DNA of 64,000 bases from an uncultured Verrucomicrobiae bacterium. GTDB lineage: Bacteria > Verrucomicrobiota > Verrucomicrobiia > Chthoniobacterales > UBA10450. Shown here piece by piece: positions 58,843 to 62,389 of the stretch. The notes below the pieces were generated by a model that was not told the origin of the DNA, made no database searches, and saw only the letters and a list, made by a program, of their open reading frames with translations. The DNA is taken from positions 64,001-128,000 of the forward strand of contig CAWFGO010000002.1 in NCBI GenBank assembly GCA_963815455.1. The letters are read 5' to 3'. How positions within the stretch are numbered: the stretch's first letter is position 1; each line of letters begins with the position of its first letter. Position numbers and translations under genes: made by a program.

Positions 58843-61800
58843 CTAGCTCAGTAATCTTCTTGCTTCCGCCAACGCGATGTCGATCTTGCTCGCGTCCTTG
58901 CCCGCGCCTTGCGCATTTTCCGGACGCCCCCCGCCCTTCCCGCCGACGATGGGTGCGATCTGTTGAATCAATTTGTTCGCCTGAACTTTCGCGGTCATTT
59001 CTTTCGGAACGGATGCGATTAATGCGACGGATTCTCCATTCGAACCGGCAAGAAATATTGGACCGGTAAACTTCGATTTCATCGCGTCCACAATAGCCTG
59101 AAGCAACTTCGAATCTGCGTCCGGCACCTGGGCCACGCAGAAATCCTTGTGCCCGGCGATAAGCTCGTTTGCGATTTGCACAGCCCGTCCCTGCAACTCG
59201 GCTCCCGCCGTTTTCGCAGCTTTCTTTTCCCACTCGCGAACATCGACATCGATCCTTTCCAAATGCGCCGCGCGCGCGGCGATCTGTTTCAACATCTCCA
59301 ACGTTTCCGCTTTCTCCGAAAAGATTGGCAATGCCGCGACATCCGATTTTTTGCGCACCAGCATTTCGAATTTTTCCTGCTGACGAGTTGCCTCCTCCAT
59401 GGCCCAGTGACGCGATGCTTCGCCCGCCACGGCTTCGATACGACGGACTCCCGCCGCGATTGCTTCTTCCTTTACGATCCGGAACGAACCTATCTCGCTT
59501 GTCGATCTTACGTGAGTGCCGCCACATAGCTCCATCGAATACCCGTTCAACTCGCGCGGTGTCCCGCCGATTTGCAAGACCCGCACCGTATCGCCGTATT
59601 TCTCACCAAAGAACTGAATGATGTCTTTGCGCTGCTTCGCGTCCGCGTACGGAATTTCCGCCCACGAGACCGAAGCATTTTCCCCAATCTTCTCATTCAC
59701 CAATGTTTCCACATCGCGCACCTGCTGTTTCGTCAGCGCCGCGCTCGAGAAATCGAACGTCAGCTTGTCCGGTCCGACGTAACTCCCTTTTTGCGAAGCG
59801 TCGCGCGAAACGACTTCATGCAGCGCCCAATGCAATAAATGCGTGACGGTGTGATGCCCCTGAATCGCGCGTCGGCGATCCACATCGACCGAAACACGCA
59901 CGGCCTCGCCCGGTTCGGGGGCGCGCCCTTGCGTCAGCATCGTGCGATGAATAAAAACATCACCGCGCTTCTGCGTATCGGTAACGCGAAGCTGGCCGAC
60001 CTCTGTGCGATCATGTCCGGGAACATGAAGCAACCCTCGATCGCCAACTTGTCCGCCCATTTCGGCATACAGAGGTGTTCGATCGAGAACGACATTTAGT
60101 TCGCCCGGTTTCTTGCCCGGCAGAACGGCTTCAACCACAGCCTCCGCCTCGAAAAAATCGAACCCAAGAAATCTGGTCGGTGCGGCCTGCAACTCCCCCT
60201 CTTCCACACTGATCTTCTCTTTCTTCTGCGCTTTGCGCGCCCGCTCACGCTGTTGCTCCATTAGCTTTTCGAAGCCGGGAACATCGACAGTTAGTCCACG
60301 CTCGCGCGCTATCAGCTCGGTCAGGTCGAGCGGAAAACCGTAGGTATCGTAAAGTTTGAAGGCGACCTCGCCGGAGATATGGCGCGCATCGGGCATCCCT
60401 TTTTCTCGACGAGCTTCCGAATTATCCAACGCTTCCGATTCACTCCCTGGATGGGGAGCGCGAGCATGTTGCTCGCTCTGGCCGGCATGCTGCCGGCCAG
60501 TCTCTCCACGCTGGGCCCATTCCCAGACCCACGGATAAGGCTCATCCGCTCCCACCAGATTCTCCGTCCACGGATTGCGGCAGATATAGAGAAACTTCTC
60601 CTCCACATCCTGATCGGAGCGCATCAGCCGGTCGTGATATTCATTCTCCCAAACCTGCCACCCTTTCTTGTCCTCTAATTTATTGATTTCCCGTGCGCTG
60701 AACGACTTAATCGAATGCATCAACTCGGGCAGTGACCAGAAGACGGGTTTCTCCCCATCGTCATCCGTTTTGGGAAACGGTTGAAAGAGAATGTGAACGT
60801 GATCGGGCATCACGCAGGTTGCGAAGAGGTCGTAGCGTTTCTGATCGAAATTGGCCACGGCGTTCAACGTGATCGTCCGTGCTTCAGGAGAGAGAACACG
60901 ATGTTTGCGAGTTGAAAACGTCACGTGATAAATGCCGTGGGGACGCTCGTAGTGAGGTAAACGGCGTTTCGAATATCTCCCGCCGTGCGGCCCATCCGGC
61001 AACATGCCGGATGGAGCGGGCAGAATGCCCGCGCTCCCCGACGCGCTGCCCGCGCCCGTCAACCGCGCGATTTCGCGCTCGAACAGCTCGATCCCTTTGT
61101 CCAGCGTCTTGTTAAACGCTTCTTCCTCGCGCTTAATCGTTTCTTTGATGTGCGTCTGTTTCGCGCGGACCTCGGGAAAAACGTCACCCATGGTTTTCGC
61201 GACTACATCGACAAGCTCGAAAAGGAACGGCTCATGAAAATCGAGCGTGCGACCGTAACGGACTGCGCGGCGCAGAATGCGCCGCGAAACGTAACCGCGC
61301 CCTTCGTTTGACGGAATGATTCCATCGGCAATGGCGAAGCTTAGTGTGCGAATGTGATCGGCGATCACGCGGAAGGCGATGTCTACGGAGAGTTGAGGGT
61401 TGAGAGTTGAGGGTTGAGGGTCGTTTTTCGGTAGCGTGCTCGCGTATTTTTTGCCGCTGAGTTTCTCCAGCTCATCGAAAATCGGACGGAAAACGTCGGT
61501 CTCGTAGTTTGAGACTGTGCCTGCGAAATCCGTAAGATTTTTTGTGCCTTGAATGATCGCTGTGACGCGCTCGAAACCCATGCCGGTATCGACGTGGCGG
61601 GCTGCGAGCGGCACGTACTCGATCCGGCCGGGGTCGGCGCCCCCGGCTACAGGTTGGGCATTGAACTGAATGAACACGAGGTTCCAAATCTCGATGCAGC
61701 GAGGATCGCCTTTGTTTACGAGCGCGCCGCGGGTATCGCCGTCGGGTGTAAGATCGACATGTACTTCCGAACATGGCCCGCACGGGCCGGTGTCGCCCAT

Positions 61801-62323
61801 CATCCAGAAATTGTCGGCTTTGTTTCCGTTTACGATATGAACGGCTGGATCGAGATCGGCTTCACGAAATAATTTCTCCCAATGATCGTGGGCTTCCTGG
61901 TCGAACTCGCTCGGTTCGCCGGGCCCAGGTTTGTAAACCGTGGCGTAAAGCCGTTGGGCAGGAAATTTCCAGCGATTGACGAGTAATTCCCAGGCCCATT
62001 CGATCGCCTCTTTCTTGAAATAATCGCCGAAGCTCCAATTGCCCAGCATCTCGAAAGAACGTGTGGTGATACGTGTCGAGCCCGACGTCTTCGAGGTCGT
62101 TATGCTTGCCCCCGGCCCGGATGCACTTTTGCGTGTCGGCAACCCGCGCCGGACGCCAGGACGGCTTCTGTTGCCCGAGAAAAATGGGCACGAACTGGTT
62201 CATGCCGGCGTTGGTGAAAAGCAGGTTGGGTGCATCCGGCAGCAACGAAGACGACGGCACGATGGTGTGCTGTTTCTCGCGAAAGAAATCGAGAAAGGAT
62301 TGTCGGATCTCGGCGCTGGTCAT
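58843..62323 (-). CDS. alaS: Alanyl-tRNA synthetase with in-frame RAYT insertion; frameshift near 62055, probably an error
   Basis: [76 protein letters not shown]. Confidence 0.97.
60454..61038 (-). mobile_element. REP-flanked RAYT (TnpA-REP, HUH Y1 transposase) inserted in frame in alaS
   Basis: [52 protein letters not shown]; inverted REP doublets at 60454-60500 and 60992-61038. Confidence 0.9.
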
Positions 62324-62389
62324 TACAGGAGGTGGCATGGGCTTCCAGCCCATGTCTCATCGGCAAGATGCCGATGCCACGCGATGCTT

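Follow-up and report, generated by a model that had tools for sequence, protein, structure and literature searches.

The alaS gene on the minus strand of the window (the whole stretch of 64,000 nucleotides that was analysed) contains, in frame, a cassette in which the core of a REP-associated tyrosine transposase (RAYT) lies between two inverted REP sequences. The feature is real, and it is a member of the RAYT family that lacks two of the defining traits of REPtrons, i.e., being free-standing and being vertically inherited. Cassettes of this kind were also found in other housekeeping genes, and by analogy the cassette appears to live like an intein-type tenant without splicing. With a probability of about two-thirds, we consider that the insert is a mobile REPtron cassette which housekeeping proteins carry as a passenger domain without splicing, that its nuclease is active on REPs, and that the cassettes move.

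TnpA-REP is monomeric and cleaves at CT, guided by GTAG (PMC3479197), and RAYTs have been described as extragenic and vertically inherited, without evidence of their own mobility (bioRxiv 2021.07.10.451892; PMC8266576). In a RAYT survey, overlong family members were discarded as fusions or annotation errors, and REPs inside tnpA-REP genes were reported for subclass 2.4 (PMC6006769). ORFs with in-frame REPs have been reported from Opitutus terrae, and these are not RAYT genes (PMC3733652). Here and below, statements from these papers refer to the available portions of their text. The initial annotation regarded the arrangement as undescribed, and our literature searches, which covered sources other than subscription journals and preprint supplements, likewise found no description of a whole RAYT gene inside a host gene. 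A term search of two text supplements of PMC6006769 (figures aside) gave no match, and PMC5581495 contains no wording on fusion or in frame.

The initial annotation had noted about 227 stop-free codons between two segments of alanyl-tRNA synthetase (AlaRS), and the insert proved to have exactly 227 (61059-60379, minus strand). In insert-free relatives, the stretch that comprises 240 residues in the window alaS is often 15-17 residues long. The insert passes the Pfam Y1_Tnp model PF01797 (35.2 bits, cut-off 23) and the NCBIfam RAYT model NF047646 (81.4 bits, cut-off 80), and the host passes TIGR00344 for alaS (691 bits, cut-off 457), so that an in-frame RAYT within alaS is confirmed. The motifs claimed previously, His-Val-His, WENEYHDR (60628-60651), and the Tyr of YICRNP, were all located (Table 1).

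Table 1. Features of the insert and of its host gene in the window
Feature	Position	Strand	Remark
alaS 5' part, starting MTSAEIRQ	62055..62323	-	Out of frame with the rest; ORF 61862-62353 matches PF01411 positions 1-92
Extra base (frameshift) in alaS	62054..62057	-	Probably a consensus error
alaS part after the frameshift	58843..62053	-	TIGR00344, 691 bits; PF01411, PF07973, PF02272
Whole in-frame insert, 227 codons	60379..61059	-	Stop-free between AlaRS segments of 13 and 16 protein letters
Short leader 5' of the left REP	61040..61059	-	Doubled feet at this place in G022 and G173
Left REP, GGGAG foot and two hairpins	60996..61039	-	Encodes the N-terminal linker (14 protein letters)
RAYT (TnpA-REP, HUH/Y1) core, about 151 codons	60523..60975	-	PF01797, NF047646
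HUH motif (His-Val-His)	60793..60801	-	Both His invariant in 97/97
Putative catalytic Tyr (YICRNP)	60586..60588	-	Invariant in 97/97; stretch aligns to 4ER8 residues 87-133
Right REP, inverted copy	60453..60496	+ (foot on + strand)	Complement encodes the C-terminal linker
Non-REP tail, about 25 codons, from the right foot to ISGEVAF	60379..60452	-	Length varies among relatives
Asp of LYDTYG	60346..60348	-	Ten codons past the insert; aligned to human AlaRS chains

The two REP arms that bracket the core are 44 nt each and 82% complementary, and each consists of a GGGAG foot followed by two hairpins; the cassette from the left REP to the inverted right REP is about 590 bp. A 60-nt stretch with the left REP folds at -22.4 kcal/mol. 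The leader resembles a decayed earlier REP foot, and it may be a remnant of one. An HUH motif and a Tyr in a Y1 core, together with flanking inverted REP hairpins with a GT[A/G]G-type foot, are thus present as in RAYTs and REPtrons, and the core motifs (DHVH, WE, and YICRNP) fall between the signatures listed for RAYT subclasses 2.1-2.8. The core was not assigned to the IS200/IS605 TnpA family, as it scored 28.5 bits with NF033573 (cut-off 55) and the copies in the genome are just 40-46% identical to the insert. With a profile of 20 cores, the best PDB match was E. coli TnpA-REP (4ER8), a weak one (E 0.006), and a single-sequence PDB search gave 2fyx alone (E 0.36).

In an AlphaFold model built from 97 fusions (mean pLDDT 81), the RAYT core (mostly 70-96 by block) and the AlaRS domains are both confident, and both folds are thus predicted to be intact in the fusion proposed by the initial annotation. 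The segments with pLDDT below 50 (334-366 and 517-553) are the REP-encoded peptides, which are predicted to be disordered, flexible linkers between AlaRS and the core. A fold search with the full fusion model returned AlaRS-type chains only, and a single-sequence fold of the core (pLDDT 43.7) was set aside.

The cassette follows the reading frame of its host. The left foot shares the same frame in 97 of the 98 cassettes, and in every host gene the frame stays open at either junction. Between foot and core, 3 of 92 embedded copies have an in-frame ATG, and 41 have no ATG, GTG, or TTG. The left linker contains a Met (61003-61005), but as this Met is not conserved, internal initiation there was rejected as a general mode. 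A promoter scan gave a single consensus match, which lies outside the insert and is no more than expected by chance. Since the cassette has no conserved start or stop, its expression would have to come from the host frame, in line with the initial annotation, which proposed that the element gains expression from the host gene. All nine stand-alone copies that were scored have their stop past the right REP, and in seven of the nine a start codon precedes the left REP. Three stand-alone cassettes (L039, L041, and L058) apparently share one locus, at which the start codon overlaps an upstream stop-like triplet; this overlap suggests translational coupling in place of fusion.

The host gene itself is interrupted upstream of the insert by an extra base that splits alaS into the ORFs 61862-62353 and 58843-62142. 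The initial annotation was right about the insert itself and omitted both this frameshift and the flanking inverted REPs. The frameshift raises the reading that alaS of this strain is a pseudogene or a mis-assembly and that the fusion is not made, which we regard as very improbable. The assembly (3.6 Mb, about 90% complete) has one alaS and no second copy was found in it, which answers the check for a single copy proposed by the initial annotation. Contigs of other organisms, at low identity, have one base fewer at the site, which says nothing about the frameshift in this strain. In the same assembly, a test of conserved genes that spanned 51 kb at most gave six frameshift sites, two of them in carB; thus an assembly or consensus error is the likelier origin, and the extra base is probably not the mark of a pseudogene. 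The best 120 homologues of the junction region are all AlaRS-RAYT fusions and come from several independent sources. Many of them carry an automatic double name, i.e., the databases label the fusion by automatic annotation; the organism names among them are few and mostly Chthoniobacterales or other Verrucomicrobia. Frameshift aside, the host has the features of a bacterial AlaRS, and its editing motifs are invariant in 97/97 aligned fusions. The Asp of LYDTYG is likewise invariant in 97/97 fusions, and it would correspond, with the numbering offset taken from the alignment, to the Asp that reads G3:U70 (Asp400 in E. coli, Asp416 in human). In E. coli, Asp400 is needed for the recognition of tRNA-Ala (PMC6055181).

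The insert lies ten residues ahead of an Asp that E. coli requires for recognizing tRNA-Ala, and this position may favor a reading in which the insert is removed or clipped, either by an undescribed RNA splicing step via the terminal repeats or by proteolysis at the linkers, which would leave a two-piece AlaRS and a free RAYT. The complementary ends could pair in the mRNA, and both linkers are predicted to be disordered. However, no intein family was matched in the insert or the host (Pfam and NCBIfam), in agreement with the initial annotation, which saw no intein motifs, and no Rfam intron or ribozyme was found in the insert; one unrelated match to a snoRNA model (E 0.83) lies outside it. There is no conserved His-Asn or His-Gln end (3/131), the junction distances differ between carriers, and the open frame across both junctions in every host is not required by RNA splicing. 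We therefore regard removal as improbable. Two specific forms were rejected: an intein, because neither a Hint domain nor the terminal residues were found, and an IStron or other self-splicing intron, because no group I or II intron RNA was found.

The initial annotation had suggested a search for RAYT inserts in other essential genes, and these were found in recG, metH, carB, thrS, valS-type, purH, and other genes, which rules out a fusion special to alaS. In the window genome, in-frame RAYTs are also present in recG, metH, and carB, each gene being its only copy. A RAYT match was obtained in 101 of 147 genomes of the family, and 122 of 138 matches (E below about 1e-34) lie in ORFs of at least 500 codons (118 of 134 when four rows that stem from unpublished genomes are left out). 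Among 119 near-full-length cassettes from genome loci, a top-scoring subset with host labels assigned by motif (four checked by NCBIfam), 106 are inside host genes (recG 60, alaS 20, metH 16 at two sites, thrS 6, and carB 4) and 13 are stand-alone; thus the free-standing, extragenic state of known RAYTs is the exception here. No stand-alone RAYT of this clade was found in the window genome. A profile search gave 150 listed matches, from which 49 long representatives (at least 330 residues) were sorted by host: AlaRS (19), RecG (5), class I (ValRS-type) synthetases (5), methylase-like/DUF1156 proteins (5), PurH (3), and one each of PriA, shikimate kinase, pyruvate formate-lyase, biotin ligase, Ham1, hydantoinase, and a 4Fe-4S protein; of the remainder, one is a fragment with tRNA_SAD only and four have no host family. 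More than 130 AlaRS clusters have a RAYT insert, and some AlaRS proteins have two cassettes at different loops. In a phylum-wide sample, 2 of 200 other genomes matched, both at the same alaS loop, so that this RAYT clade is concentrated in the family.

Several further loci were observed. The carB gene (L177, G000:C1:1469339-1473118), with two frameshifts upstream in the gene, contains a RAYT of another type, with a longer core and GTAG-footed REPs; embedding thus extends beyond a single clade. Two in-frame REP pairs, without a transposase, lie in a DNA polymerase III alpha-type gene (L176, G000:C2:503631-506831). In metH (G000:C3:169636-174156), one site contains a RAYT cassette; a second site, at which relatives carry a full cassette, has a REP pair. 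G000 further has five stand-alone, distant Y1 genes (C2:520570, C5:101194, C3:679491, C3:533771, and C1:863683), with about 25% identity to the insert; at least one of these is broken, and one has its own GGAG-footed hairpins.

The alaS loop is occupied patchily. By coordinates, the RAYT clade was present at the loop in 19 of the 139 published genomes of the family that have an alaS match, and in 5 of 34 genomes of the best-sampled genus; the loop of a same-genus relative of the window genome is empty. A tree of 145 cores requires 10 changes of the alaS-site label, six of them forced by well-supported branches. At least six RAYT lineages are thus found at this loop, in a pattern that departs from the host tree. 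A test of 20 alaS cores with 48 others rejected monophyly of the alaS cores (p-AU 9e-47). The window core belongs to a clade of 11 rows that is confined to alaS, and its five genome carriers are scattered on the host tree, a quick tree of 57 AlaRS with weak short branches, in which the nearest alaS to that of the window is insert-free. Host and core identities are hardly correlated (Spearman 0.09; 105 proteins, with pairs that are not independent), and in 203 pairs the hosts are at least 90% identical and the cores less than 55%. For example, G167 and G157 have sister alaS genes with 91% identity and RAYTs with 46%. Inheritance is therefore not vertical and congruent with the host. On the other hand, the same loop holds unrelated segments of 24-81 residues in other relatives, so that tolerance of the loop alone explains part of the pattern; in L011, L018, L020, L143, L161, L163, L164, and L168, these are segments of 70-81 residues of several kinds. 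In addition, the closest cores, about 28 (75-84% identical), sit in alaS genes that are 82-89% identical, and long vertical stays are thus possible.

Such a distribution may also arise if the cassettes are passive, i.e., if they come by homologous recombination or by transfer of alaS segments and the RAYT duplicates short REP pairs only. This would fit the published record, which has no evidence of RAYT self-mobility (bioRxiv 2021.07.10.451892; PMC8266576), and the near-confinement of the window lineage to alaS: the best-scoring relatives of the window core are all AlaRS until a carB copy at 63%. However, a marker 8-10 codons downstream of the cassette (YDTY or YDEQ) tracks the host and not the cassette, and in G036 and G114 it differs from that of their cassette kin, which argues against long recombination tracts. 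In addition, alaS cores group with thrS cores (98*) or with stand-alone copies (99*) with the same REP type, and homologous recombination cannot produce cores of the same type in non-homologous genes. Passive arrival is thus unlikely in our judgment.

The cores appear to be under selection. The two His and the Tyr are all kept in 152 of 153 alaS-site cores, a set in which the window is counted twice and one further duplicate is present, and in which the choice of homologues by similarity favors intact motifs; in recG cores from genome loci, they are kept in 55 of 60. In 16 within-lineage pairs, pN was 0.06-0.26 and pS was 0.39-0.91; hence the dN/dS check suggested by the initial annotation gave a dN far below dS and indicates purifying selection, with dS saturated for most core pairs and thus no exact ratio. 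Matched inverted ends were found in 98 of the 119 cassettes (median 48 nt, 86.5%). At both ends, C/T-rich positions lie 2-3 bases before the GG-G[G/T]AG foot, though on different codon positions. The foot is GTAG in 37/98 left and 39/98 right ends, with the other foot letters fixed by the search pattern; that of the window insert is of the GGAG type.

Strong purifying selection and persistence in more than 130 AlaRS clusters could also mean that the RAYT has become a domesticated domain that aids the host enzyme, e.g., in nucleic-acid binding, and is no longer mobile. Such a domain should not be absent from 120 of the 139 family genomes with an alaS match, replaced by unrelated lineages, or found in unrelated enzymes, and the matched inverted repeats with a conserved foot point to a constraint at the DNA level. 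Domestication is thus quite improbable, slightly more so than removal of the insert. The stable domestication at the alaS site that the initial annotation considered is not supported by the patchy occupancy, the several unrelated lineages, and the lack of a match to the alaS tree. Its other suggestion, protection from loss, holds partially at most, since most close relatives lack the cassette.

REPs like those of the cassettes are dispersed in the genomes. The window genome has 111 footed hairpins, mostly in inverted pairs, versus 10 after shuffling; 62 are of the recG type, 12 of the metH type, and 6 of the alaS type, each number including two flanks. The cognate REP type of the window insert has four dispersed double-hairpin copies in this genome. 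One REP type has 26, 25, 15, and 8 copies in four genomes with the matching alaS RAYT and at most 7 elsewhere (147 genomes); however, the patterns were chosen after seeing the flanks, so that carriers have two copies by construction, and kin genomes are not independent. When the two flank copies are subtracted, G157 (6) is no longer above G145 (7). The unpublished genome G008, with a similar left end in alaS and one REP match, is a counter-case. The REP pattern of the window lineage, which also fits some recG-type REPs, peaks in the carriers G173 (35) and G022 (32), and the window genome has 6. RecG-type REPs number 5-93 in all 15 carriers, and 9 of 132 other genomes have at least 10. These counts suggest a tie between REP abundance and the matching alaS RAYT, a weak one for the window's own copy. 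Joints between both REPs in three low-identity contigs of other organisms were taken most simply as REP pairs from elsewhere.

The preferred reading, that of a mobile, unspliced passenger, can be put as follows. A cassette open from end to end, without a conserved promoter, start, or stop, would sit in single-copy housekeeping genes, at surface loops that tolerate it, and would be translated as a passenger domain, in one polypeptide with the host. The REP-encoded peptides would act as disordered tethers, so that the host enzyme and the monomeric HUH nuclease could fold independently; a life as a tethered domain is plausible because TnpA-REP is a monomer that cuts at CT under the GTAG guide. 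The tethered nuclease would process cognate REP hairpins, presumably with a cut at the pyrimidine pair before the foot, and would thereby spread short non-autonomous REP pairs through the genome. Whole cassettes would more rarely move, driven by the RAYT, or replace each other at a few hot-spot loops. In its boldest form, the proposal is that these are self-mobile RAYTs without promoter, start, or stop, that they are active single-stranded DNA nucleases expressed only as unspliced domains of essential proteins, and that they overwrite each other; we consider the chances of this to be evenly balanced. If it is true, the cassettes are direct cases of RAYT genes that move themselves, like inteins without splicing.

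Inteins with homing endonucleases place a nuclease in frame in essential single-copy genes, at recurring sites and with a patchy spread. In contrast to inteins, the cassette has no splicing domain and would stay in the protein, it occupies variable loops rather than conserved motifs, and its chemistry would be the single-strand chemistry of HUH enzymes. IStrons, which combine a group I intron with an IS605-type transposase (bioRxiv 2023.11.20.567912), are similar in that an element with a Y1 transposase tolerates landing within genes, but they are removed by a self-splicing RNA and carry TnpB, whereas the cassette has neither an intron nor TnpB. The described REPtrons (4ER8; PMC3479197, PMC8266576, PMC6006769, and bioRxiv 2021.07.10.451892) share the HUH and Tyr core, inverted G[G/T]AG-footed REPs, dispersed cognate REP pairs, and few copies per genome. 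However, their RAYTs are free-standing, extragenic, and host-congruent, whereas the present ones are mostly in frame inside housekeeping genes, with REPs that lie in translated frames, GGAG feet commoner than GTAG, and one site whose occupancy is polyphyletic. The in-frame REP/RPE insertions of Opitutus terrae and Rickettsia (PMC3733652) show that palindromes are tolerated in protein loops, including in Verrucomicrobia; these insertions consist of repeat alone and add between a few and about 80 residues, whereas here a whole transposase gene travels along.

In the RAYT literature, these genes are non-jumping, extragenic, and vertical, and their mode of spread is open; the cassettes, which occur as whole REP-RAYT-REP units at numerous non-homologous sites and as different units at a single site, offer defined ends, targets, and cognate REP pairs for the study of RAYT mobility. 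They would represent a third route for a mobile element in an essential gene, beside introns and inteins, namely, to remain in the protein, tethered as a domain. The hot-spot loops show at which places AlaRS, RecG, MetH, CarB, and ThrRS naturally tolerate an insertion of 200 residues.

Some minor features were observed in and near alaS of the window. Directly 5' of its start, a double-hairpin palindrome (62332-62380) has a foot-like GTGG at both ends and loops resembling those of alaS-type REPs. A small in-frame palindrome (61627-61653, PVAGGADPG) extends a loop from 12 to 20 residues, with the same length in G023 and G034. In a motif of 10 protein letters near 61290, Ser stands in place of the Leu found in the consensus of 97 homologues, either a variant or a base-call error. 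A second alaS loop contains a short in-frame tandem repeat (61390-61419, 10 protein letters), and at this position relatives have REP pairs or another RAYT.
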